Made by a program: the position numbers and the translations under genes. DNA of 62,470 nt, filler included, from Circinaria calcarea (lineage: Eukaryota), in the NCBI GenBank assembly GCA_051942165.1. It is 6 parts of 6 records of this genome, joined end to end, with 100 filler letters (N's around TTAATTAATTAA, not from the genome) between each part and the next. Parts side by side here need not be neighbours in the genome. Positions count along the whole stretch, not along the records: positions 10,452 to 20,793 come from JAVECS010000821.1; 5 more parts are not named here. One strand, written 5' to 3'. The notes under the pieces were generated by a model, which was not told the DNA's origin, made no database searches, and saw only the letters and a program-made list of their open reading frames with translations. Every line of letters begins with the position of its first letter. The stretch's first letter is position 1. Positions 3,396 to 52,182 of this stretch are shown here, one piece after another.

Positions 3396-5155
3396 ATGAG
3401 ATGGCGGTCCTTGCGACAACTCAGTCTTAATATGCGCCACCCACGACCGTCCATCTCCACCCGCAATGCTCGACGGCATCTGTCCCAACACGCCAATCTC
3501 CTCGACAACATAGCAAATATACTCGCTCTTCCACCAATCGCAGATGGCTTTGCGCCGCGTAAGGTGGAGGTGACAGCGCACGTAAGGACAATCAGAAACC
3601 AAAAGCGCCACTCTTTTGTCGAACTTGGAGATGGGTCCACTATACATTCCCTCCAAGCGGTACTGAGCCCATCACAAGCTGCCAGGTACGTTCCCACCGG
3701 TAAACCCGTCCTCGACGTAACACAGGAGGACTAATCTCCTAGGAATGTAGCCTTGGCACAGGTACTGCCGTGACGGTTTCTGGACGATGGTTACCATCTC
3801 CACCAGGAAAAGAGCAGTCTTATGAACTACATGCGGACGAAGTCAAAGTCATCGGAGTTACAGACGCAGAAGTTAGTGGAATTTGTGTTGAATCATGCAT
3901 GTATCCGATTGGTAGATATTAAATGCTGACCGTAACCCTATGGAAGGCATACCCGATTCAAAAGAAATATCATAGCGCTGAATTCCTCCGCACTATTCCA
4001 CATCTCAGGCTGAGGACTCCAATTAACGGATTGCTAGCGAGGCTGAGGTCTGATTGTGATTTTCACATTGCCAGCTTCTTTCGAGCTCGTCAGTTCATCC
4101 GCCTTCAGCCTCCAATCATTACATCCTCGGACTGCGAAGGTGCTGGCGAGGTCTTTTCCGTATTCTCTGGTAAGGCGCAGGATGGGAAAGCCGAAGGGCC
4201 CCAGAGAGTATCAAATTCAGAAGACGAATTCTTTCGGACCGCTAAGTTTCTTACGGTGTCTTCCCAGCTTCACCTTGAGGCTTTCGTGCATGAACATCAT
4301 AAGGTTTGGACGCTTTCTCCAACATTCCGTGCAGAGAAAAGCGACACCCCCAGACATCTTAGCGAGTTTTACATGCTCGAGGCAGAGTTAAGGACCGAAA
4401 GCCTGCAAGATGTGATGGACGTGGTCGAGGATTTGATCCGCTCACTGGCTGTCAACGTGCGGAAATCTGTCGTCGGCCAAGAACTATTAGCCGTCAGATA
4501 TACAGCGGATTCTGAACACGGCAAGTCAAGCTTCACAAGATCTGAGGTAATAAAAAGTCGTTGGCAAGGTTTAGAGAGGAGACTATGGCCTCGTGTGCCG
4601 TACAACAAAGCAATAGAACTGTTGCAGGCAGCAGTTGATGCCAAAGAAGTAACGTTTCGGTACGAGCCGTTATGGGATGCGGGCTTGCAACTTGAGCATG
4701 AGAAATTCCTTGCTGCTGAAATCGGGCAAGGAAGCCCAGTTTTCATTACAGATTACCCTCAACTAGTGAAGCCATTTTACATGCCCCCTTCAACATTGCA
4801 TAGCTTTAGCGGGCAGAAAACTCCCTCTACCGTCTCCTGCTTTGACCTACTGTTACCAGAGGTTTGTGAGGTGGTCGGTGGCTCGCTGCGAGAGCATCGT
4901 TTGGAAGCTTTGTTGCAATCCATGCGAGAGCATGGAATGCAAAAACATGTACAGAGCAAGCCCGGATTCGAAGATCAAATGGTTGGCGAAGGGTTAGGGA
5001 ACCTTGACTGGTACGTTGACTTACGTCGATTCGGGAGCGTTCCCCACGGAGGATTTGGTTTAGGTTTTGACCGGCTTATTGGTTATCTTGCCGGGATTGA
5101 TAACGTTCGTGACGTGGTCCCTTGGCCACGATATTATGGCAAATGCGATTGTTAA
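3396..5155 (+). CDS. SLM5: Asparaginyl-tRNA synthetase, mitochondrial type; exons 3396-3685, 3751-3871, 3947-5155
   Basis: Arg-rich N-terminal presequence, OB-fold (FVELGDGS), DCEGAGEVF, FRAEKSDTPRHLSEFYMLEAE and PHGGFGLGFDR motifs. Both introns are canonical and keep the frame. Confidence 0.92.
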
Positions 5156-7829: not shown

Positions 7830-7946
7830 ATTTCTTACTTCTTTTCTTGGTAATGCATTGAGCTGCGCTCTCTGTTACAAGGGAATCAACATTAACGCTC
7901 GACAACAATTCCTTTAATATTCTAATTCAACTCACGAACTAACGTT

Positions 7947-9374
7947 ATGGAAACATACAATGGTCACGTACGGACTCCGGCGGACGCCATAATCCTCTTC
8001 GAAGCGTGTCGTCTCGGTCTCCTCCCGCGGGTGCAGCGACGGCTGTCTGAGAAAGAGCGTCAGTCAATAAAATCGGGCTCGGTATTTGTTTGGGATGAGC
8101 GAGAAGCAGGTATGAGAAGGTGGACTGACGGGAAATCATGGAGCGCAAGCCGGGTCTCGGGAAGCTTTTTGACGTATAGGGAGATGGAGGGAAAGCGCGG
8201 TGGCAATGGGTTTGCACCTCCATTAGCCGCTTCGAGGGCAGGAAAGACTCCGGACAGTACACGAGGAAGTGACTCGGACTTGGAACTGGCTGGGGACGAT
8301 GGACCTGACGGATATCGGTATAAGCCAGACGGACTGATGAAACAATCTTTCAGCATCACAACATCTAGTGGGAACCATCTCCATCTCATTAGCTACTACG
8401 CACGGTCCCATCCAGCCGCCCCAAGCCTAACACAACCCACCAATGATCCAGCCCTTAGACACATTCGCCCCCAGAAAGGCATGTATCCGGAATCGACAGT
8501 ACACGAACAACAGAACATTCCAGCGGTCACACGTTCTCCAATGGTGAGTGGTCCTCTGGCTCAAGTACCTCAAATGGCAGGTTACGCTCGCTCTGGTCCC
8601 AGCCATCCTCTCAGCTACACGCAGCCAGGTTATGGCTGGCCGTCGCCCCCGGCATCCATACACAATGGGTACGGGTTTCAGTACACACCAAGCAGCCTCT
8701 CACCACCGCCACCCCCCAATTACACTAATCATTCGCCGCTCGCCTATTCTCAAAACATGGCACCGACGTCACAACCACCTTGTCCCGTTTCATACGGGAG
8801 AAGTTCTACACCCCCTGCTGATAATCATCTAACTCATCCTGGGCACACTTCTCACCACCGAAACACAAGCTCCGGAAGCAACTATTCCCAATACCTATCG
8901 AACTCTTCCCCACGCGCTGCACAACCCGGCACCCTGATTGCACAACAGCAGCCACCACAGCCTCTGTCGCAGCAACAACAGGTATACCTCCAAAGTCCAT
9001 CATCAACTCCACCATTGTCCAAAATTGATCCACGACTGATGGCTCCCTCGCCTCTTTCCCAACAACAGATATTGCATGAGATCAGCAAACCGAGGACTCC
9101 ATCTCCAGCTCAGCCCAAACGAGAGTGCTCAGGCACCCCTATTCCCAGAGAAGGAGGGATTTCTCAAGCCAGCACAATCCCGAGCATTGGCGCTCTAATG
9201 AACGAATCTCCTGTGGACAATATGGATGCTCGAAGCGATCGGAGCGCTCGATCGAGCAGCAGAAGTCCTGGAGGAACAAAGAAGGAAGGTCCACAAGACA
9301 TACCGAGCGAAAAGCTGGGGTTTGGTGAGGATATGAGGGCTTTGCGAGTATTGGATCGTGCTTTCAAAACCTGA
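7947..9374 (+). CDS. pac2: Gti1/Pac2 (WOPR-domain) transcription factor, Pac2 type
   Basis: METYNGHVRTPADAIILFEAC..IKSGSVFVWDE..RWTDGKSWSASR..LMKQSFS..HLISYY WOPR boxes, followed by a P/S/Q-rich disordered tail. Confidence 0.93.
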   Translation: METYNGHVRTPADAIILFEACRLGLLPRVQRRLSEKERQSIKSGSVFVWDEREAGMRRWTDGKSWSASRVSGSFLTYREMEGKRGGNGFAPPLAASRAGKTPDSTRGSDSDLELAGDDGPDGYRYKPDGLMKQSFSITTSSGNHLHLISYYARSHPAAPSLTQPTNDPALRHIRPQKGMYPESTVHEQQNIPAVTRSPMVSGPLAQVPQMAGYARSGPSHPLSYTQPGYGWPSPPASIHNGYGFQYTPSSLSPPPPPNYTNHSPLAYSQNMAPTSQPPCPVSYGRSSTPPADNHLTHPGHTSHHRNTSSGSNYSQYLSNSSPRAAQPGTLIAQQQPPQPLSQQQQVYLQSPSSTPPLSKIDPRLMAPSPLSQQQILHEISKPRTPSPAQPKRECSGTPIPREGGISQASTIPSIGALMNESPVDNMDARSDRSARSSSRSPGGTKKEGPQDIPSEKLGFGEDMRALRVLDRAFKT

Positions 9375-10351: not shown

Positions 10352-10451
10352 NNNNNNNNNNNNNNNNNNNNNNNNNNNNNNNNNNNNNNNNNNNNTTAAT
10401 TAATTAANNNNNNNNNNNNNNNNNNNNNNNNNNNNNNNNNNNNNNNNNNNN
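10352..10451. other. Artificial contig spacer (N44-TTAATTAATTAA-N44)
   Basis: Identical 100-nt linker carrying stops in all six frames. Confidence 0.98.
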
Positions 10452-10609
10452 ATAATAACCATATATATCATAAAACTTCACATATTAAATATGATTTTAT
10501 AATCAAAATCCTATAGAATAATTAGAGACTATCCTATCTATACGTTGAAAAAATTAAATATATATAACGCATAAATAACGCGGATCTGAGAAAATTACGC
10601 GATTTTGCG

Positions 10610-10691
10610 CTCAGACGTGTGCAGCCGAGAGGTATTAGTAATCCTCGGATCGGCTCGCTAACCCGCTCGGGGCTATCGCCACACGTCTGAG
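10610..10691. repeat. Perfect 12-bp inverted repeat enclosing nested stems
   Basis: CTCAGACGTGTG (10610-10621) and CACACGTCTGAG (10680-10691), with internal AGCCGA/TCGGCT and CCGAG/CTCGG pairings. Confidence 0.75.
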
Positions 10692-10993
10692 AACTGAGGC
10701 AATCAAGAAGTCCTGATAAGCCCTGCATTATGTAATCAAGCTAGTCCCATTTCTACTTACGCGGCTATTATTCCTTTGTACAGATATTAAGCCCAGTTAT
10801 TTCCTAGGGAAACTTTATGGCTCCGTCCCGCACATAAAACCCTGTACCGGATGCTCCAATTCAAGTCTACTGGCAAGCAGCTGGCCTATAAAGCCGACTC
10901 CAAATTGGCATTGGTAACACGAATCCCCAATCTCATTTCAGGATACGTTGGTTTTATCCATAGAATCATCACTTTATAAGACTTTTTGACGGC

Positions 10994-13806
10994 ATGCCTG
11001 GGACGGTAGAAACCCCGGCTTCTCCTTCTCACCTCTCCTCAAACCATGTTACGAGATCAATCTTTCCACAAGCTCCTAAATTTACGTTAGATGTTTTCTC
11101 AGACCAAGATTTCTTAGTCAAAGACTTCATCGAGTCCCTGTCTGAGAGTGCAATACCAGCAAATCGCCGGTCTGGTCCGGGTAACCAAGCCCAGGCATTT
11201 GACCCGCGGCCCCTGATCCGAACATTTGAACATGCCCTCGGTCGATTGTCGGAGCTTTCTGGGGAATTGGGAGCGCGAGAAAACGAACTCTCTGCCGCTG
11301 CAAAACGTGCTGAAGCGCAGCATGCATCGAACGTACAATCGCTCAGTCGGAAGCTTGATGAGACAATTAGTACATTCCGGAATCTTGATGGCTCCCTCAG
11401 TCGACGTGACGGGAATGACTTCAACTTCGAAGCAAATGCAACCGTGAAGATTGGGCAGAGGATAGAAGAACTGGATAGGCAAAGAGAGCGCGCTTTAGAT
11501 GCCAAGTTCCTGATCCAGTGCTGGCTAGAAGTCAGCGAGCGCGGAGAGTTGTATCTTCTGGAGGACATGAGGCGATCTGGATCTGGAGATCGTAAAGTGC
11601 GTTGCGCGCAAATCGCAAGGCAGCTATTGAAAATAAGCCAAAGGCTCGAACCTGAATCTTGGGGACGCGTCAATGGCAGGATCCAATCGACAAACGGAGC
11701 AAACGGAACCAACGGGGTAATCGAAGCTAATGGAGTCAATGGTCACACTGGCAGTTCTTCAGTACGACATAACACCAGGGAAATTGTGGAGAAATTCTTA
11801 GAAAATTTGGAGAAGGACCTGCTCAAACAGTTTGATGAGTATTACAGAAGGGCTAATTTTGACGGCATGAGGGACTGTGCCAATGTCCTCCATGACTTCA
11901 ATGATGGCGCCAGTGTTATAGGATTGTTCGTTAACCAACACCAGTTTTTTATTGATCGAAGCCAACTGGTAACGGAAGAAGTCGCCGGTGATGCTGAGAC
12001 TTGGAATCGTCTCGCCGACCCAGATACTGATAGCCCCGGTGTTGAACCAAGTTTACAGTCCTTAATCGACGAGGTCAGAATTGTTGTGCAGGAAGAGTCG
12101 GCCATCATCAAACGGGCGTTTCCGTTTTATGAGCAAGTGCTTGGACAATTCCTTCAAAGGGTATTCCAGCAGTCTATCCAGCAAAGGTTGGAACTAGTCC
12201 TTGAGAAGGCTAATACTATATCTACCCTCGCTTTCTTGCGATCACTTCAATCGTCACGAAGTTACGTTGCTACCCTCGTGGATGATCTCAAATCTCATGG
12301 CCTTACTGAGCATCCTGAGGCTCTGTCGTCGCAGACAGCCTTAATTCTGGATCAACAGTTCGATGACCTTTTTGTCCCCTATTTCGTTGGTTCATTATAT
12401 ATTGAACGGGAAAAGCGTAATCTAGAAGAGCTCTACTCTTCCTTACTATTCAAATTCACCATCTTCCACGTAGGCTATGCAGAGGTACTCGAAGAAATAT
12501 GCTACAATGTGCTGATGTGACCCTAGTCTCGAAGACGAAAGATTCCAACAACCTTTATCGCATCGCTTGCTAAGTCGGGCAGTGAAATCCTAGCATCAGC
12601 CCGGGAAGCGTATATCGAACGCCTCGATTCCTCCGACTTAGCAGGCGCCCAGAAAGCCATGCTACTTCGGGTAGCTGGGTTAAAGGATGTTGACAGCACC
12701 AAGAAACAGACAGATATAGAGTTGACAGAGCAAGACGGTCTCTTGAGCATTGCGAATGCCAAGCGAATGTTAAAATGGCTTGCTGAGGCGGTGGGCAGAG
12801 TTCTGGAACTCAGTGGTGGTAATGAGACACCAAAAGATGTCTCTGCACTTCTCGATCTACTGCTCACCCATATGGGGGAGTTCTACATTGAGACGGCTCT
12901 AGATGCGTCAGTTGTTGGCCTTGGAAGCGCTCACGCAAACTTGCTTACTCTTGGATAGTGCAAACGAAGCAGCCGCAGCACAAGAACATGCTAAGAATGA
13001 GCCCGACTTATCCTATCTGGAGAATCTGCACTCCGCCATTGCAATCTTACACTTGATGGTAACATGTATAAACACCGTCCTCATCCCTCTTGCAGCCTCT
13101 CATGTAATTATACGTCGTGAAATGGAGAAAACTACGAACTTGGCAATGAACCGAATGGAGGAAAAAGTAAATAGCATCTTACAGCATACCATCGATGTCG
13201 CACTTTCATGGGTAAGCAAACTACTGGCAGGCCAAAAGAAAAGTGACTTTAGACCACGGGATGACACGTTGGGCGGTGGTGGATCGTGGCTAGAGCAACT
13301 ACAGACGCCGGTATATCCTTCATCCTATAATCTCCACTGTTTCCGAAACAATTACTAACGCAAACGTTCACAACTGGCAGACGTGCCTATCCATCTACAC
13401 CTTCCTGACGCGCCTTCACAACGTCTCGCTCCTCGCCCTCGCTCCTTCCCCCAACCTAACATCCCTCCTCGCCGAAATCGCCCTCGGCCTCCGCGCCCTC
13501 CTCCTCGACCACTTCAAGAAATTCTCCGTCAGCGCGGCCGGAGGCATCATGGTCACCAAGGACATCTCCAAATACATCGAGTTGCTCCGGAGCTGGAACC
13601 TAGGCGCCGGCTTCGAGCCCGGTCTGGAGGTCCTGACGGAGATTGGCAATCTCTTTGTCATTGGGCCCGAGGCGCTGCGGGAGAGGCTGAGGGGAAAGGG
13701 GGGTGTCGTGGGGGGGATGTGGGAGAAGGGCGATTTGAGGCCGTATGTGCTCAAGCGGGACGATGCGGGGAGTGTGGGCGTGCAGAGTGTTTTGAATTCT
13801 TTGTAG
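10994..13806 (+). CDS. SEC10: Exocyst complex component Sec10; exons 10994-12469, 12527-12906, 12959-13310, 13381-13806
   Basis: FDPRPLIRTFE, FVNQHQFFI, FLQRVFQQSIQ, QKKSDFRP and GGIMVTKDI motifs. Three canonical introns link the four ORFs in frame. Confidence 0.93.
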
Positions 13807-14141
13807 GTGGAGAGGATATATATCATGCGGTGGTAATGGATGGGGTCATAAAGCGTATGTATCTCAAGGGTGAATCTACCGTTTCTAAACCCGGGGCGTG
13901 CCATACGTTCTGTGTTGTAGAATGATTTGAAAATTCACAAAATACCAGGATAAGTAACCTAGGTTCTTGATTGCATAACGACACGAGGCGCCCCATTGGA
14001 GAAGTGAACCATTTACAAGATCTAATGATCTTCTAGATTCTAATGCCCGCAGCACTGCTATGAGACCTGTACGCGCAGCAGTGGTATCTAAACAATCCTT
14101 CTACCCTGCCATCCAAGGATGCAGACCATATGGCCCGCCGT

Positions 14142-15440
14142 TCATAATTTCTTGTCCAATTGCTCCGCCAACGCATCCACATCTCGGTCTTCTTCCTGCG
14201 GCACTGTTTCGTCTTCCGCCTCGTCTGCCTCTTTGAGGATGCGCTCGGCTTTTACGTCGGGCTTCAGATCGATTTCTTCATCGGATGCGTCGTCTTCAGC
14301 CTCACTCTTCGTTTCACCCTCATCGTCGTCGTCGCTGTCTTCCTCTAGGTCGCTCAAATCGTCCAGGCCCCATTCTGCGTCGGCATGGCGCTCGCCTGCC
14401 TCTTCCTTTCTCTCGTTGAGAAGGACCCGGAGGCCTTCTACGCCCTCGTCATCTTCTGAGAATTTGTTACCGTTGAGCTCGACTCGCCGCAGTTCCGGCA
14501 GTCCACCTTCCGACGCTACCAATAGCGCTTTCACCCCTTTGGCGTCCAGGTCGTTATATTGAGCCCTCAAAACTCTCAAATTTCTATTTGTCCCTTTGCT
14601 CAACGCCTCCGCAACCGCCATTCCTCCTCTCGCTCCCAGTAGACAGTCCCCAACTCCTAGCTCCCTCAGCTGTTTCCATCCCCCAACGACCTCTGATAAT
14701 GCCAGTGACCCTGTAATTGTGAAGGTATTATCCTGTAAATCCAACACTTCCAGCTCCTCGCAACCGCGCAGTCCTTCCCGGAGTAGAACTGCAATACCGT
14801 CTTGACGGATACCGTTTTGTGTCATTTTAATCTTTCTAACACCACGGTGATTCTTGAGGGCTCGAGCCCAGGCTGTCATGCTGCCGCTTTCTAGCCTATT
14901 ACGCCCGCAAATGATGGTGCAGAGGTCCGGAACTTCCTTCCCCTCTTTTCGCGCCAGGGCCTTCTTTTCTGCCAGCTCAGACAGGGCATCGGCGATTTGA
15001 ATACCCGCATATGGACCGAGGCCATTGTTGTTGAGTATTAGATGCTTGAGGGGTACATGCTCCTTTAGGAATGCCACCAGCGGCCCTACGGTATTGAGTC
15101 CGAACGCGTTGTCAGACAGGTCGACCGTGTGAAGGTTGGGGAGCTGGAGGAGGGATGTGAGGAGAGCTGAAAGGGCCTGGGGAATTTCGGACAGAAGTCG
15201 CGAGGTAAATATATCCGCTAGGTTGGCGACCTGCAGATTCTGCTGCTTCGAGAGGAGGGAGGCGATTTCGGTACAGGCGGGGACGCCGAGGGTGTTGCCC
15301 CCTAGGCGGATTTCTGTTATGGAGGTGGAGGCGCGAAGGGGTTCGAGGTGAGGATAGGCTTCCTCGACGGTAGAGAGTTTGAGAGATTGATTTTCGAGGG
15401 AGAAGATGGTAGGAATCGAGGGTGGTGAAGAAGATGACAT
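14142..15440 (-). CDS. RNA1: Ran GTPase-activating protein 1 (LRR plus acidic tail)
   Basis: LGGNTLG, LADIFTSR, LSDNAFG, GRNRLE and LDLQDNTFT LRR motifs; D/E-rich C-terminus. Confidence 0.95.
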   Translation of the reverse strand: MSSSSPPSIPTIFSLENQSLKLSTVEEAYPHLEPLRASTSITEIRLGGNTLGVPACTEIASLLSKQQNLQVANLADIFTSRLLSEIPQALSALLTSLLQLPNLHTVDLSDNAFGLNTVGPLVAFLKEHVPLKHLILNNNGLGPYAGIQIADALSELAEKKALARKEGKEVPDLCTIICGRNRLESGSMTAWARALKNHRGVRKIKMTQNGIRQDGIAVLLREGLRGCEELEVLDLQDNTFTITGSLALSEVVGGWKQLRELGVGDCLLGARGGMAVAEALSKGTNRNLRVLRAQYNDLDAKGVKALLVASEGGLPELRRVELNGNKFSEDDEGVEGLRVLLNERKEEAGERHADAEWGLDDLSDLEEDSDDDDEGETKSEAEDDASDEEIDLKPDVKAERILKEADEAEDETVPQEEDRDVDALAEQLDKKL

Positions 15441-15897
15441 TGTTTAAAGGGTATATGTGAGCAAAGGTATCAAACACAATTATCAAAGAGTAGCTTCGTA
15501 TAATCGTACCCCGCTACTAGACCTGCCCGTCTAACATTATTTGGGAAATACGCGGATGCGGGAGTATGTTGCTCATCCACTCTCTCCCACTGCTATTCCC
15601 TGACGAAGGAAAATGCGCTCTCCGTTCTTTCATCTTCTGGTGATGACAGTAGAGCATGATAACATGGGACTATCTCTAACATCGGATGGATTTACTACCG
15701 TGTCTGTATTCAGCCACTTCCCAGAGCCACCCTTTTGTCACATCACCATGGATGAGCAAAGGGTAGACCCCTCATCGTACCGAAGGACAATATAAAGCGC
15801 TTGATTACCGCTGAGTTATGGGCAAAATATAATCTCAAGCCACCTAAGTACTCTACTTGTGGGTCAATGTAGCTAACGTGCATTACAAGATATTTTC

Positions 15898-17930
15898 CTA
15901 GCTCCATTGGGCATCGCTGATGTCTACAGTTCCCTCGGGAAGGATCACTCGAGGTGCAGAGCTTACTTCCCTTTGGCGCACGTCAAACGGTATCGATGAT
16001 TTCCCAACCATCAGTTCAAGACTGATACCACACCGGCTCTTCTTCCAGCTGAGTTGTAGCAGCGCTTTCGACCTCCGCCAGCTACGCTTGATGTGACGCT
16101 TTTCCACGCGCAGTTGACACAACGGCCGGTCTGTCCCCTCGACCTGGTCCCGAGACGGAGTAGACAAAGTAACGAGCGTCAGGTAGGAATACTGGGCTTT
16201 GGGTGAATGTCTGAAATTAAAGGTGAAGGTGCCGGCAGTCGCAGCATCCTACCGAGCAATCAGCAGGTTATTGGCATGGAGGTCTATGATCTAGGCTCAC
16301 TGTCAACGGTAAAACGGCTACTTGGGCCCCGGACCGGGCCATCGACTTGCAATCGACCCACTCAATCTTGGATACGCTGGCTTGTTCATATATGTGGTCC
16401 CCGCAGACAAGGCCAATCGAGTCTAAGCCCGGCCGGTATGGATCAGGGAGGCAACCTCCTCTGGCAACTGCCAATTCTCTACCGCTGTGAATTAGCTATA
16501 GCGGTCATCTAGTCATAGGTGGCCTAACTTACGGTTCTGAAGCGACTTTGACCTTGGTTGCGGAACAGTGACGGAGATACAGTGGTGAATCGAGGAGGAT
16601 GTTTTCGAACTCCTGTCGTGCTATCTCAAGATAGAAGTAGCCTCCGCAGCCCACCAGGTAACTCTTGACACGCCATAAAAATCCTTAGCCACGAGGAAAG
16701 AGAGCAAGGTGAGAACTTACCAAGGGTTGTTTATATTCTTGCATTGCATCGAGAATCATCCGCTGGACTTGCGCTAAAGGCTCCTGAAAGATCTCTTTAC
16801 GATCGTCTCTGTATGATATCAGCCCCATCCAACATCCTGTTATGTTGCACTTTACCTCGTGACCGTCATACTGCCATTGTTAACTCCAGCATCATCGTTA
16901 TCCGGTACTGCTACAGGAACTGCAATAGAATGGACCTCTTGCTCGGGAACGGCGCGCTTGATTCGATTCCAGCCACTGCTTTCCCGCATATGACGAGCAA
17001 CGGTCTTTTTGTCGAAAGAAAATAAGGGTATGACGGATAAGCGTCGTTCAACAAATGCTTCAAAAGCGGCATCAATATCAGTGGTACCAACCGCTTTCCC
17101 CGGACAGCTCCAGTCAACACCGAAGCAGATTTGGCCGTTAATGCCAGTGCTAGCCTTGACAACTGCAATATCGGTTGTGCCGCCGCCGACATCGCACACC
17201 ATAACAGTGTCACCCTCCACTACCTCTCCCCGCATCCGTCTGGCAACGTCTAGAGCCGCGGCCTGCGCCTCGCTCAATTTCAAATGTACCCGGTGATATT
17301 GACCGCCACTCTCGTAACCCGCTTGAAGTATACAGTCGCGAAAGCTCTTGATGGCTGCCGCTGTCCATGTGGTCGGCCATGTAAACCGAAATTCAATATG
17401 CAGCGTATTCCAGTGGCGTTCCTTCAGTTTTTCAATGATTTCTGCTTGTACTCTTGAGTACAGCCGTCGTAGATAATCGACGTACCATCTGCGGACCTCG
17501 GATTCAGACTTGGGAAGGAAGGCGGACGCAGATTGACATGCCGGAATCAGGTAGTCAGAATCCAGGTACGGTTTGAACCATTCAACAATTCTAAGGGCTT
17601 CCCTGCCAACATAGCTCTCCGAATTTCTGCTGGCTTCGAAGCCCCACGACCGTACATGGCCACCGCTTGGGCTTACGTATTCTTCATATTCGAGTACTGT
17701 TGGTATCTTGGTGACGGCCTTATGCGACCGAGCTTCACCAGCTTCTTCGGTCCAGGTCATCTGAAAAACTCTCCTAAACGGGTGCACGGTGTATGCTACG
17801 CCTGTTGGTTGTTAGTGAGGATTGGCACAGAAGCGCGAGCTGTACCTGTCGCTGTCATTCCAACATCGATCCCTATCACGACGTCTGCAATTCCTTCGAT
17901 GTTGAATTTCAAGAGGTTATTTGTCCTTCT
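15898..17930 (-). CDS. Divergent Hsp70-family (HSPA12-like) actin-fold ATPase, multi-exon; 5' end unresolved (possible first exon from the ATG at 18083)
   Basis: Spliced reading gives VIGIDVGMTATGVAY (phosphate-1), TWPTTW, SEAQAAA (connect-1), VCDVGGGTTDI (phosphate-2), YLVGCGG (adenosine) and LAVARGG (connect-2). GT..AG introns join the exons through to the stop at 15898. Confidence 0.8.
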
Positions 17931-18307
17931 CTAGTCGGGGAAAGGAATTTGGCATGAAGGACATATGAGGCCGACCTCCAAGTCTATTCTCGGCTCAGAC
18001 TATAGGGTCTCGGGATACTTCCGACACAGTCTCATAAAGGCGGCGAGCCTAGCTTCTTCAATTGCCGTAAGAGACAGTTTCATATGGTTGCATCTCACTA
18101 CAGATGTCTTTGTTTGTACTTCGGGGTACTGATAAAAATAACCACATACAAAGGGGGAAATTCGGCACTTTTTCTTTGTTTGCCCCAAAGTTAATTAATC
18201 CAGTTGCTGCGCTTCTCCTACCCGCAGAGAACTTCCCATGCTGAAAGTTATTATTTGGTATCATATCATTTCAGATCTTGCCTCGATTAATCTCCCACAA
18301 CTCCGGA

Positions 18308-19358
18308 ATGTATGGCGGTCGACTAGCAGGTGTGCTAATTGCAGTAGCCATCGGCTCAGTAACTTTATGCTGCATTGCCTTTTATATCTGGATGATCATA
18401 CGAAAACAAAAGCGTCGTCAAGAGGACACTGAGTCGCTGAAGCCAGTGCCGCGAAGTCAATGTGAAGACTGTCGCTTCGAGTTTATTCTCCCCGATCCCC
18501 CGCTCCAACATGAGATCTATCTCGCAATGGGCCAGTTCGAGCTTGCCATGACCTCAATTGCCCATTGGTGCTATAAATTTACTAAGGACCCGCCCACGCT
18601 CTCGGACTCTCAGCTACAAGGTCATTTGGAGATTCTTGGTGTCGCCAAAGATCGACTCCCCTCGCATAAGCTCTTGGAACTCCTTCCCCTACGCATCGAG
18701 ACGTTCGTCTATCACGTCCTCAGCACCACGTTGGTTAGTGCGATCGCGATCAACGAGAATGCTAGTCGGACGATCCTGGATGCGCAACTTGTCGCACTGT
18801 ATGAGTCAATGCCGCCCTGCCCTCATGATATAGATGGTGAGTTTTCTCAGCGTCTGTATCAGAATCATTCTCACTGTTGGGTTTTTAGCTCCAGAGTGGA
18901 ATCGTATTACCGCCCGGTGCCGCGAATTCCTGGCCTATCTCTTCCGGGCTCACGAGCCCGAAGGGAAGAAGCTCAATCAGAAAGGAGTCGATCAGCTTAT
19001 GCGTCAACTGACCGACCTGCTCGTTAGCGTCCTGGGTCCCGCTGCAATCAACGATAAACATCTCCAGCCGAACCTCCTCTTTGCCTGTCGCACAGCTGCC
19101 AACGTAGGGTCATGCCTCTTGCGTCATCCAGCAACTCATCGATTCGATTGGACGACCAGTATTTCAAGCCCCGGAGAGCCGGTGGTGGTATTTCCTGGAT
19201 TAGTCAGGACAACGGACCATAGAGGTTTACCCATCCATGCGCCAGAGGTAGTTCATTTGGGACAAGTCGATTGTATCGGCATCCGCAACCAAACAGCCTA
19301 TCCAGACGCGAGTGCATGGGCGGCGGCGATGGCAGAAGGCGAGAGAGAAGCGTGTTAG
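18308..19358 (+). CDS. Hypothetical single-pass membrane protein with helical body and PVVVFPGLVRTTDHRG C-terminal beta region; exons 18308-18836, 18889-19358
   Basis: Hydrophobic helix LAGVLIAVAIGSVTLCCIAFYIWMII followed by RKQKRR. A GTGAGT..TAG intron (18837-18888) joins the two ORFs in frame. Confidence 0.75.
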
Positions 19359-20072
19359 GTCGGGTTCACGAAGGGTACTGGGGCAAACCATTTGATTTCA
19401 AATTCGGACCGCATCGATTATATTAATTATGGTAGACCTTTGTGGCCATTGGCGTAGGCCCTTAAGTAGATGGGCGTATTTGCTTTGATTTTAATACAAG
19501 ATTTAGCTGCCATATCCCTTTATAAACCAATGAAATTACCCTTTAGTTTGAGTCATTTCAATTCATCCTCGGTGTCATGGGTTTAGCCCCAGGCCACCCC
19601 TGACGGCAGGCTGCGCAGCCCTACCATACTGGTCGTGTATCTAGCACGGTGCAGCCATTCCGGCTGCATCCCACCTATCTTGCACTAAATACACATACTA
19701 TACACTTGGGAGCACGCCTTCACTACGTGACACTCGGTCGCTTTGCCGCCAATCTCCGAGTCGAAAATATACCGAGTAGTCCATTCATCAACCGCCGGTT
19801 GCTTACGGGCATTGAATTGGCTGGTGCATGATCATTACTTGTGCCTCGATTACTAAAGCGATAATATGCGAACGCTAACAAGGACAGAAAACGCCGTTTG
19901 CACCTCTCCCATCAAGCCCGCCACCCATCCGGGATACCGCTAAGCACTGTAATTCCGCCTTTGTCCCAGGCTTTTCGGTAGATCGCACTCCCTAATCTCC
20001 GCCCTTCTCGTCACTGGTCTCGAGCTGCGATATCACGTCAGTCATTTCCCGAGAGCTTCGTTTCCGGGCGCT

Positions 20073-20477
20073 TCACCTTCTCTGCAAATTGAGATACGCA
20101 TACTTCTCGCCCAGCTGCGAGACATGGGCCGAGAACCGGTTGGTAAGCCTCTCGGCTTCTTTCGGGTCAAAGCATAGCCTTCGAGGAACAGCAGTCATGA
20201 GGGTCTGATACCTCGAACTATGCAACTCTGAACCGGACCGGGTATACGCGTGCAGTTCCACAAGGATTTCGTGACAATTTAATCTCCACTGGTCCAGAAA
20301 TCTATCCTCTTCCGGAGCGAGGCCGAGCTGTTTTATTTCCCGGAGCTTACGGTCCAAGTTTTCAGCAGCGTCCCTGAAAGTTCGGGTGTAGGTCTTTTCC
20401 GCTTGCAGGTTATCTTTAATAGCTAGCACTAGCTTGGTGATCTCTATGCTGAGGCTGATGAGTCCTAGTAGCTCCAT
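20073..20477 (-). CDS. Small helical protein resembling HeLo-like/SesA-type fungal N-terminal domains of STAND proteins; may have a short extra 3' exon
   Basis: Hydrophobic N-terminal helix MELLGLISLSIEITKLVLAIK, then amphipathic helices with NCHEILVEL. A GTGAAG..CTGAC..CAG intron candidate sits at the 3' end. Confidence 0.55.
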   Translation of the reverse strand: MELLGLISLSIEITKLVLAIKDNLQAEKTYTRTFRDAAENLDRKLREIKQLGLAPEEDRFLDQWRLNCHEILVELHAYTRSGSELHSSRYQTLMTAVPRRLCFDPKEAERLTNRFSAHVSQLGEKYAYLNLQRR

Positions 20478-20793
20478 GGCGACGGTAGCTTCGGACCGAG
20501 GAAAAGACGATTAAGAGGCAGTTATCCACTAGAGAAGGACTGCTCACGACTGGGGTTGAAGGCTGGGAAGCCGGGCTCGGGGTCGAATTTTGATAGGATA
20601 GAATTGCTTATTCTCGAAGGCTGAATTGTCGTTGTCCAGTCCCTTGGGGCCTACATATCGACATCTTAAGGGCAAGCAATAACAAAGATGGCAGAGTCTC
20701 GATCGACTGGAAACGAGTGCATTACACGGTCTCACGATTGGAATAATGACTTGAGGATGGCGCTTTCAGCAATCCGTCCCCAGTCAAGTCAGG

Positions 20794-20893
20794 NNNNNNN
20801 NNNNNNNNNNNNNNNNNNNNNNNNNNNNNNNNNNNNNTTAATTAATTAANNNNNNNNNNNNNNNNNNNNNNNNNNNNNNNNNNNNNNNNNNNN
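20794..20893. other. Artificial contig spacer
   Basis: N44-TTAATTAATTAA-N44. Confidence 0.98.
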
Positions 20894-21206: not shown

Positions 21207-22481
21207 ATGTCTACTTGTGAGTTGCTACTCACATCCATGCCTCTCAGCCTGAGTGTTGGACACTGAGACCAGAGCTAATTCGCCGAATCTATCCAGCAAA
21301 AGTCGTTCCGTTGACATGCCACGGTCACTCCCGTCCGGTGACTCACTTGAGCTTCTCGTCTGCTGTCGATGACGATCAGTCCTACTTCATCTCAGCTTGC
21401 AAAGGTATGGGGCCCCCGTCTGTCACTATACATACGTTCACCTTCAATGGCCCTCACATACTAATGCGTTTTCCACAGACAACAATCCTATGCTCCGTGA
21501 TGGTATCACTGGCGACTGGTAAGCGACTGTGGGTAGCAACAATGGTCCTTGAACTCACGTGTATAGGATTGGTACCTTTATTGGTCATAAGGGGGCGGTT
21601 TGGCAAGCGCGTCTATCTGGGGATGCTGGTGTTGCTGCAACTGGATCTGCCGATTTTACCGCGTAAGTAAAACGACAACTCTCTTCACGACTGCATCCTA
21701 CTGATCAAGCCCGTCCTGTAGCAAAGTCTGGGATACTCACAGCGGCGAATGCCTGTTTACTTTTCAGCATAATCATATCGTCCGTGCTGTTGCCTTTCCC
21801 ACCCACGTAAACCCTCAGACTCTCGCAACTGGTGGCTTTGAAAAGAGGCTCCGAATCTTCGATTTGATGCAAACCGGTAGCACATCATCATCACCAACCA
21901 GCGCTGATGGCACAAGTGTCCTCCCTACCAACGCCGCAAGTTACGAAATAGGTGCCGGTATGCATGGTGGACCGATCAAATCGATAGTCTGGGGACCTGA
22001 CCGCAACATTCTCATCTCAGCCTGCGACGATAAGATGGTTCGCTGGTGGGATATACGCAGCCGAACTCCAATCGCTAGTTATGGTCTGGACGGTGTGGTC
22101 GGCAGCTGTGAGCTCAATACACTCACGGCGTCCAATGTCTACCGGGACCCTGTTTTATCAATCGCCGCCGGCAAGTCCGCATATTTCTTTTCGGGCATTA
22201 ACCCGGGTCAACTCATCAAGCAGGTCAAGACACCACACGAGGTGGCTTCTGTGGCTCTGAATGCAGCAGAGCGCAAGTTCATCGTTGGTGGGAGTGCAGA
22301 CACTTGGGTTAGGGTTTACAGTTTCGATGAAGAGAGAGAGTTGGATCTGCACAAGGGGCATCATGGACCCATCTGGAGTACAAGCTTCTCTCCAAACGGG
22401 AAACTTTATGCCACGGGCAGTGAAGATGGGACGATCAAGTTGTGGAAGTTTTGCAAGGAGCCCTACGGACTGTGGAGGTGA
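21207..22481 (+). CDS. STRAP/UNRIP-like WD40 protein (serine-threonine kinase receptor-associated protein), multi-exon
   Basis: VPLTCHGHSRPV, ISACKD, PMLRDG, TFIGHKGAVW, KGHHGPIW and YATGSEDGTIKLW; several short canonical introns. Confidence 0.9.
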
Positions 22482-31227: not shown

Positions 31228-31327
31228 NNNNNNNNNNNNNNNNNNNNNNNNNNNNNNNNNNNNNNNNNNNNTTAATTAATTAANNNNNNNNNNNNNNNNN
31301 NNNNNNNNNNNNNNNNNNNNNNNNNNN
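31228..31327. other. Artificial contig spacer
   Basis: N44-TTAATTAATTAA-N44. Confidence 0.98.
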
Positions 31328-41660: not shown

Positions 41661-41760
41661 NNNNNNNNNNNNNNNNNNNNNNNNNNNNNNNNNNNNNNNN
41701 NNNNTTAATTAATTAANNNNNNNNNNNNNNNNNNNNNNNNNNNNNNNNNNNNNNNNNNNN
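41661..41760. other. Artificial contig spacer
   Basis: N44-TTAATTAATTAA-N44. Confidence 0.98.
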
Positions 41761-52082: not shown

Positions 52083-52182
52083 NNNNNNNNNNNNNNNNNN
52101 NNNNNNNNNNNNNNNNNNNNNNNNNNTTAATTAATTAANNNNNNNNNNNNNNNNNNNNNNNNNNNNNNNNNNNNNNNNNNNN
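52083..52182. other. Artificial contig spacer
   Basis: N44-TTAATTAATTAA-N44. Confidence 0.98.

Follow-up and report, generated by a model that had tools for sequence, protein, structure and literature searches.

In a 62-kb window of DNA (the whole stretch that was analysed) from Circinaria calcarea, a lichen-forming Lecanoromycete whose assembly is a fragmented metagenome-assembled genome, we followed up three adjacent genes on one contig, here called A, B and C. An earlier note on this DNA had read them as a chaperone-type sensor module made of an Hsp70-family ATPase (A), a membrane-anchored GrpE/MIEAP-like partner (B) and a stand-alone HeLo-like effector (C). Sequence comparison makes gene A a new member of a large, widespread and uncharacterised Pezizomycotina family of ATPases that resemble the Hsp70 nucleotide-binding domain (NBD). 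What may matter is that this big fungal family, which has no name of its own, includes Hsp70-like ATPases that in some cases are joined to a HeLo-like or a kinase domain. The locus itself is ordinary-looking, with lineage-specific genes beside housekeeping genes, and the interest lies in the relatives of gene A. On balance, and with modest confidence, we read A, B and C as three adjacent, fast-evolving, lineage-restricted Lecanoromycete genes beside housekeeping genes that form no demonstrated island.

Exon 2 of gene A, taken alone, matches MreB (E 8e-4) and HSP70 (E 0.025) in Pfam, both under the cut-off, and MreB (E 0.074) and DnaK (E 0.59) among Protein Data Bank (PDB) sequences; gene A scores 13.3 bits against Pfam HSP70, for which the cut-off is 20.6. 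An exhaustive search with the same exon retrieved 907 representatives at E ≤ 1e-3, 252 at E ≤ 1e-10 and 7 at E ≤ 1e-30. Family members come from Dothideomycetes, Sordariomycetes, Leotiomycetes and Lecanoromycetes, where their source names are 'Actin-like ATPase domain-containing protein' and 'Hsp70 family chaperone'. When a family profile (A3; 26 sequences, 615 positions) was compared with solved chains, it matched the NBDs of mortalin (6.8e-11) and DnaK (1.7e-10), with profile positions 9-397 aligned on DnaK 4-363. This profile settles the predicted fold, an Hsp70-type NBD (actin-fold) ATPase, and bears out what the earlier note had said of gene A. Past profile position ~417 of 615, the profile search of structures aligned no solved chain; the C-terminal ~200 aa are family-specific, and the Hsp70 substrate-binding domain is unmatched. 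Given the Pfam score and the unmatched substrate-binding domain, gene A does not appear to be a canonical Hsp70 chaperone.

Several relatives of gene A carry additional sequence ahead of the ATPase. Pfam was run on 34 of the 150 relatives listed. P0050, a 752-aa protein from a 3,361-base contig in JGI/IMG, combines in one open reading frame (ORF) a PigL_N/Helo_like_N domain (PF17111, E 1.6e-21, residues 1-152), a SesA match (E 1.2e-4) and, following these, the ATPase; it is the one relative with PigL_N among the 34. In P0060 (974 aa), a Pkinase domain (E 4.3e-43) precedes the ATPase. N-terminal extensions of at least 100 aa were found in 7 of the 150 relatives, and those of P0009, P0043 and P0048 are mostly helical-looking and have no Pfam match. 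P0009, from Xylographa, another Ostropomycetidae lichen fungus, is the closest full-length relative of gene A among those listed (40% identity). According to the accessible part of PMC9815663, the effector domains of fungal NOD-like receptors (NLRs) include Pkinase, SesA and Helo_like_N. Because the relatives carry N-terminal PigL_N/SesA or a kinase, the ATPase family would sometimes take the position that NACHT/NB-ARC holds in NLRs, and because it sometimes seems to hold this switch position, a functional tie of gene A to a HeLo-like gene is plausible.

Gene A presumably works as an ATP-driven conformational switch, and its family may act in regulated cell-death or non-self pathways, since relatives bear N-terminal domains of fungal NLRs (PigL_N/HeLo-like, kinase). 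Any functional statement made here, and any coupling among A, B and C, is something that we infer. The literature searched, whose coverage ended at subscription journals, held no description of the gene A family and none of HeLo-like/Hsp70-like or kinase-ATPase architectures; one paper, in its accessible part, lists HeLo domain and Hsp70 genes separately on Fusarium supernumerary contigs. We consider the PigL_N and kinase fusions within the ATPase family the most useful lead. If the fusion pattern holds, an actin-fold ATPase would have to be counted among the switches known to govern cell-death effectors in fungi, and hundreds of genes now called 'hypothetical' or 'Hsp70 family chaperone' would gain a testable role.

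The six modelled exons of gene A (Table 1) are separated by five introns of 44-57 nt, all GT..AG in the model, and give 594 codons plus a stop that can be aligned with 12 full-length relatives. The motifs IGIDVGMTATG and DVGGGTTD align with the conserved phosphate-binding motifs of the family, which we take to be phosphate-1 (DxG) and phosphate-2 (DxGGGTxD); in the region that we take to be the adenosine motif (GG), gene A is divergent, with VGCGGYFY against LSGGLGSS in the family. The start of the gene is harder to place. In the region 17846-18120 (minus strand), the first exon stays open for 28 codons behind an in-frame TAG (17933-17931), and no in-frame ATG precedes the phosphate-1 motif, the sole ATG of this exon lying within the motif. 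Just upstream, an ATG-led short ORF (MSFMPNSF...) in another frame is terminated by TAA in a short A run. This could reflect a frameshift, a 5' intron that escaped recognition or a start further downstream, and none of the 40 ATG/donor/acceptor combinations that we enumerated for a 5' exon was convincing.

Such a start raises the question of whether gene A is a decaying paralogue, that is, a pseudogene in a cluster without joint function. The degenerate adenosine motif would fit this, as would segments in the C-terminal half that are shorter than in the aligned relatives and the score of exon 6 (-0.014) on a codon-usage log-odds measure derived from the window's confirmed genes. However, the six exons are open throughout and have canonical splice sites, the in-frame codon score is the best of six frames in five of them, and exon 2 is 82% identical to the ORF of one relative and 58% identical to that of another, with the motifs kept. 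We therefore regard decay of gene A as quite improbable.

Gene C looks like a real small coding gene: its codon-usage log-odds is 0.082, within the 0.00-0.17 spanned by the confirmed genes of the window and above the antisense ORFs, which are mostly below 0, and an identical 134-aa protein is on record at NCBI as a separate protein; the contig recorded for it, like the one recorded for the gene B protein, measures 10,342 bases, just as the present contig does. Its TGA stop overlaps a potential splice donor (GTGAAG, 20073-20078, minus strand). Homologue searches returned only gene C itself among 20 candidates of near length and nothing among 463 longer candidates. Pfam gave 0 families at E ≤ 10, and so no HeLo (PF14479), PigL_N (PF17111) or SesA (PF17107), in a search whose HMMER filters discard most matches above E ~0.1. 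By contrast with this null, Atlas, a protein-language-model search (recognition for gene C 2640), placed it nearest to clusters of stand-alone Ascomycota proteins of 139-146 aa (top score 0.95, 181/256 features shared); 11% of the members of the top cluster carry a PigL_N annotation, and in another cluster 16% are annotated with SesA. An AF2 model from the single sequence has five helices, at a predicted local distance difference test score (pLDDT) of 58.9. With this low-confidence model the fold matches are generic four-helix bundles, the best at Foldseek E 0.07 and VIA Z 10.9, the latter under the noise level of ~13 quoted for helical bundles, and no HeLo or MLKL chain is among those listed. 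The N-terminal helix is hydrophobic (mean Kyte-Doolittle 1.75, residues 2-20).

The small gene of the earlier note is thus present, its product is predicted to be helical, and the proposal that it is HeLo-like stands in part. The Atlas clusters argue for it and the empty Pfam search argues against it; the Foldseek matches, generic helical bundles obtained with a low-confidence model, tell little. That gene C encodes a stand-alone, membrane-targeting protein of HeLo-like (PigL_N/SesA) type is possible, and we treat it as a lead and not as a result.

This lead opens the way to a two-part system in which gene C would be an effector acting in trans and gene A its ATP-dependent switch, with gene B a bystander or a membrane tether; it would amount to a split version of the P0050 fusion. 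The position of gene C, 2.1 kb upstream of gene A with both on the minus strand, its Atlas clusters and its hydrophobic N-terminal helix are consistent with such a system. However, besides lacking a Pfam match and resembling only generic bundles, gene C is unlike the N-terminal domains of P0050, P0009, P0048 and P0043 (Smith-Waterman z 0.03, 2.07, -0.90 and -0.54, 1000 shuffles), and BLASTP against P0050 and P0009 gave E of at least 1.5. The link between a HeLo-like effector and the ATPase that the earlier note had drawn is accordingly found in P0050, within the family of gene A, but does not extend to a likeness of gene C to the domain fused there. The rarity of PigL_N among the scanned relatives also speaks against a two-part system, as do the neighbours of related ATPases in metagenomes. 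A scan of JGI metagenomes for the ATPase gave 79 loci, six of which (L001-L006, E 1e-34 to 4e-12) appear to belong to the family; the others (E ~1e-7 to 6e-5) are probably generic Hsp70 or MreB relatives. Among the 36 + 54 = 90 neighbour ORFs of the six, Pfam found no PigL_N, SesA, HeLo, NACHT or HET domain; the matches there were IPMS, GRDP-like and zinc finger. No homologue of gene B or C was seen at meaningful E at the 79 loci (best tblastn E 0.16). We consider a two-part system unlikely for this locus. The broader proposal, in which the Hsp70-NBD-like family would be the actin-fold counterpart of the NLR switch and gene A, by changing or assembling in an ATP-dependent way, would control the separately encoded, HeLo-like gene C, is similarly doubtful.

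Given the long N-terminal extension of P0009 and the fusion in P0050, genes C and A might alternatively be, or have been, a single gene, with gene B either nested on the opposite strand of a ~2.15-kb intron or inserted so as to split the gene. The order and strand of the genes fit, the first exon of gene A lacks an upstream ATG and is open for its 28 codons right after the in-frame stop, and the phase of the GTGAAG donor at 20076 suits AG acceptors at 17928 and 17925. Yet 32 donor/acceptor pairs are phase-compatible, so that such a fit is expected by chance, and the acceptors in question read GAG and AAG, not YAG. An intron of this size would moreover be exceptional beside those of gene A, the public record has gene C as a separate protein, and its nearest Atlas clusters consist of stand-alone proteins. 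A common gene for C and A is therefore very improbable.

Gene B, modelled with two exons and 332 aa, is hydrophobic from about residue 6 to 31 (the hydropathy peak), past a short N-terminus, and continues with RKQKRRQ. This suggests a signal-anchor protein with its bulk in the cytosol, a predicted topology that agrees with the single-pass membrane protein of the earlier note. Its sequence matches 'MAG: hypothetical protein Q9187_004285 [Circinaria calcarea]' at 99% identity. In the public model (P0001, 277 aa) translation begins at an internal Met, which leaves the membrane anchor out; the last exon of that model also differs (~19712-19831) and has a negative codon score. We favour the 332-aa model because the Atlas look-alikes of gene B, Ascomycota hypothetical proteins without a Pfam family (score 0.90), measure 312-341 aa. 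Only 3 of 217 candidates from 5.8 billion proteins reached E ≤ 1e-3, namely the annotated copy and two exon-1-like ORFs with 57% and 62% identity to exon 1, whose similarity across these three copies points to conservation as coding sequence. A pattern search of JGI metagenomes gave 196 matches and no confirmed copy.

The proposal that gene B is GrpE or MIEAP/SPATA18 finds no support, since Pfam matched it to neither and no GrpE match came from the PDB. Neither P0001 nor the exon-2 translation (P0005) matched any Pfam family at E ≤ 10, and the exon-1 ORF, at E ≤ 0.1, matched only Hemotin (E 0.088); among PDB sequences searched with the exon-1 protein at E ≤ 10, the best match had E 0.8 and none was GrpE. 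The GrpE fold has a long helix, a four-helix bundle and a C-terminal beta domain that contacts the NBD. The AF2 model of gene B (5 sequences) is all-helical, with no strands of three or more residues, at a mean pLDDT of 40.5 that is too unreliable for a judgement of fold. Gene B is best described as an orphan, predicted membrane-anchored helical protein that is not recognisable as a nucleotide-exchange factor.

These results bear directly on the three-gene module in which gene A would be a chaperone-type sensor, gene B its anchored GrpE/MIEAP-like nucleotide-exchange partner and gene C the effector. Genes A and B do lie head-to-head, as had been noted, with 377 nt from the ATG of gene B to the 5' limit of the first open exon of gene A, and conflict systems of bacteria in which Hsp70 is coupled with GrpE offer a precedent in the accessible part of PMC7159879. 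However, apart from the missing family and PDB matches and the lack of GrpE-type beta structure in the (unreliable) model, the two partners differ greatly in their distribution. Because gene B has two relatives and the family of gene A hundreds of representatives, gene B cannot, on these searches, be a general co-factor of the ATPase family. Moreover, phmmer found neither gene B nor gene C fused to other proteins among the 160 proteins collected, which include the 150 listed relatives of gene A. We regard the three-gene module as very improbable. For the locus, the consequence is that the GrpE/MIEAP label is dropped and that the A-C pair takes priority over the A-B pair.

The window consists of six contigs of 10,351 to 10,288 bases, sorted by falling length and artificially joined; because the spacers between them are artificial, loci that flank a spacer are no genomic neighbours. 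The WD40 gene at 21221, for example, is on another contig and hence is no neighbour of gene C. On the contig of genes A, B and C, two genes come before gene A: Sec10 (Pfam E 9e-95) and a leucine-rich repeat (LRR) protein gene, presumably RanGAP-like. The grouping of the three genes after housekeeping genes on one contig was thus correctly described, as was the convergent orientation of B and C, whose stops are 714 nt apart. Head-to-head and convergent gene pairs are common in compact fungal genomes, and for this reason the arrangement of A, B and C alone is not beyond chance. A fungal NLR or het-type incompatibility locus, as had been suggested, finds no support here, as none of the 8 ORFs scanned on this contig, which stops 316 nt past gene C, matched NACHT, NB-ARC or HET. 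A repeat comparison gave no insertion signature on the contig, only short, chance-like repeat matches. Elsewhere in the window, on a different contig, an ORF at 7926-9374 (plus strand) has a Gti1/Pac2 (Wor1-type regulator) domain (E 2.6e-45), and the same piece holds a class II aminoacyl-tRNA synthetase at 3923-5155.

Table 1. Positions of the three genes, their contig and the spacers, counted along the window
Feature	Position	Strand	Details
Gene A, Hsp70-NBD-like (actin-fold) ATPase (predicted)	15898..17930	-	six modelled exons
Gene A exons	17930-17846, 17801-16856, 16808-16721, 16663-16533, 16484-16301, 16248-15898	-	exon model
A-B divergent intergenic region	17931..18307	.	377 nt; might also harbour a 5' exon of gene A that went unrecognised
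Gene B, N-terminally anchored single-pass protein (predicted)	18308..19358	+	exons 18308-18836, 18889-19358; ATG at 18308, one intron 18837-18888, stop 19356-19358; 332 aa
Gene C, single-exon ORF, predicted helical	20073..20477	-	134 aa; ATG 20477-20475, stop 20075-20073
Contig with Sec10, LRR gene and genes A, B and C	10452..20793	.	10,342 bases; spacer on either end
Spacers between contigs	10352-10451, 20794-20893, 31228-31327, 41661-41760, 52083-52182		each 44 N + TTAATTAATTAA + 44 N; about every 10.4 kb

Several observations weigh against our preferred reading of three neighbours that form no demonstrated island. Genes C and A share a strand, with C upstream, and in one relative a HeLo-like domain is fused to the ATPase; their adjacency may not be chance. 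The divergent promoter region is common to A and B, which is compatible with co-regulation. The N-terminal extension of P0009 amounts to ~370 aa, much of it helical-looking, and in gene A the phosphate-1 motif has no start codon ahead of it. How often fusions occur in the family is poorly known from a scan of this size. Finally, the absence of homologues of B and C comes from a word-seeded search that misses distant relatives, and Atlas shows Ascomycota look-alikes for both. A recurrent A-B-C arrangement across Pezizomycotina nevertheless seems unlikely, because gene B has two relatives and gene C none in these searches of limited sensitivity. A joint function of the three genes is unproven, B and C being near-orphans. 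From the interpretation in the earlier note we retain the ATPase fold, the membrane anchor of gene B and the predicted helical nature of gene C, and the fusion in P0050 newly supports a tie between a HeLo-like domain and the ATPase family; the GrpE/MIEAP component of the earlier note is given up.

In comparison with the Hsp70 NBD (DnaK, mortalin, Hsc70), the gene A family aligns over the whole domain, and gene A has both the DxG and the DxGGGTxD motif; unlike Hsp70, the family has its own C-terminal region in place of a matching substrate-binding domain, and gene A stays below the Pfam HSP70 cut-off. The family also falls outside the seven Ascomycota Hsp70 subfamilies (SSA, SSB, KAR, SSC, SSE, SSZ and LHS) treated in the accessible part of PMC3879978. 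Gene B is like GrpE and MIEAP/SPATA18 only in its predicted helicity and in the Hsp70-like gene that adjoins it, and differs from them in its N-terminal membrane anchor and in having no family match. The bacterial systems of Kaur et al. 2020 (PMC7159879), as far as the accessible part of that paper describes them, are prokaryotic GTPase-centred conflict operons in which Hsp70, sometimes as the NBD alone, is linked with GrpE, whereas no such GTPase and no GrpE were found on the present contig; by analogy, they would be a precedent for the logic but not for the A-B-C locus. HeLo/HELL proteins are encoded beside NLR genes, and gene C is a candidate for a free-standing protein of HeLo-like type, but no NLR is among the ORFs scanned on its contig and, on inspection by eye, it has no C-terminal amyloid-type motif. 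As to the fungal NLRs themselves, the central NTPase here is predicted to be actin-fold and Hsp70-like, not a NACHT/NB-ARC P-loop NTPase, and no repeat domains were seen; what relatives of gene A appear to share with NLRs, as these are described in the accessible part of PMC9815663, is the N-terminal domain, PigL_N/SesA in P0050 and a kinase in P0060.

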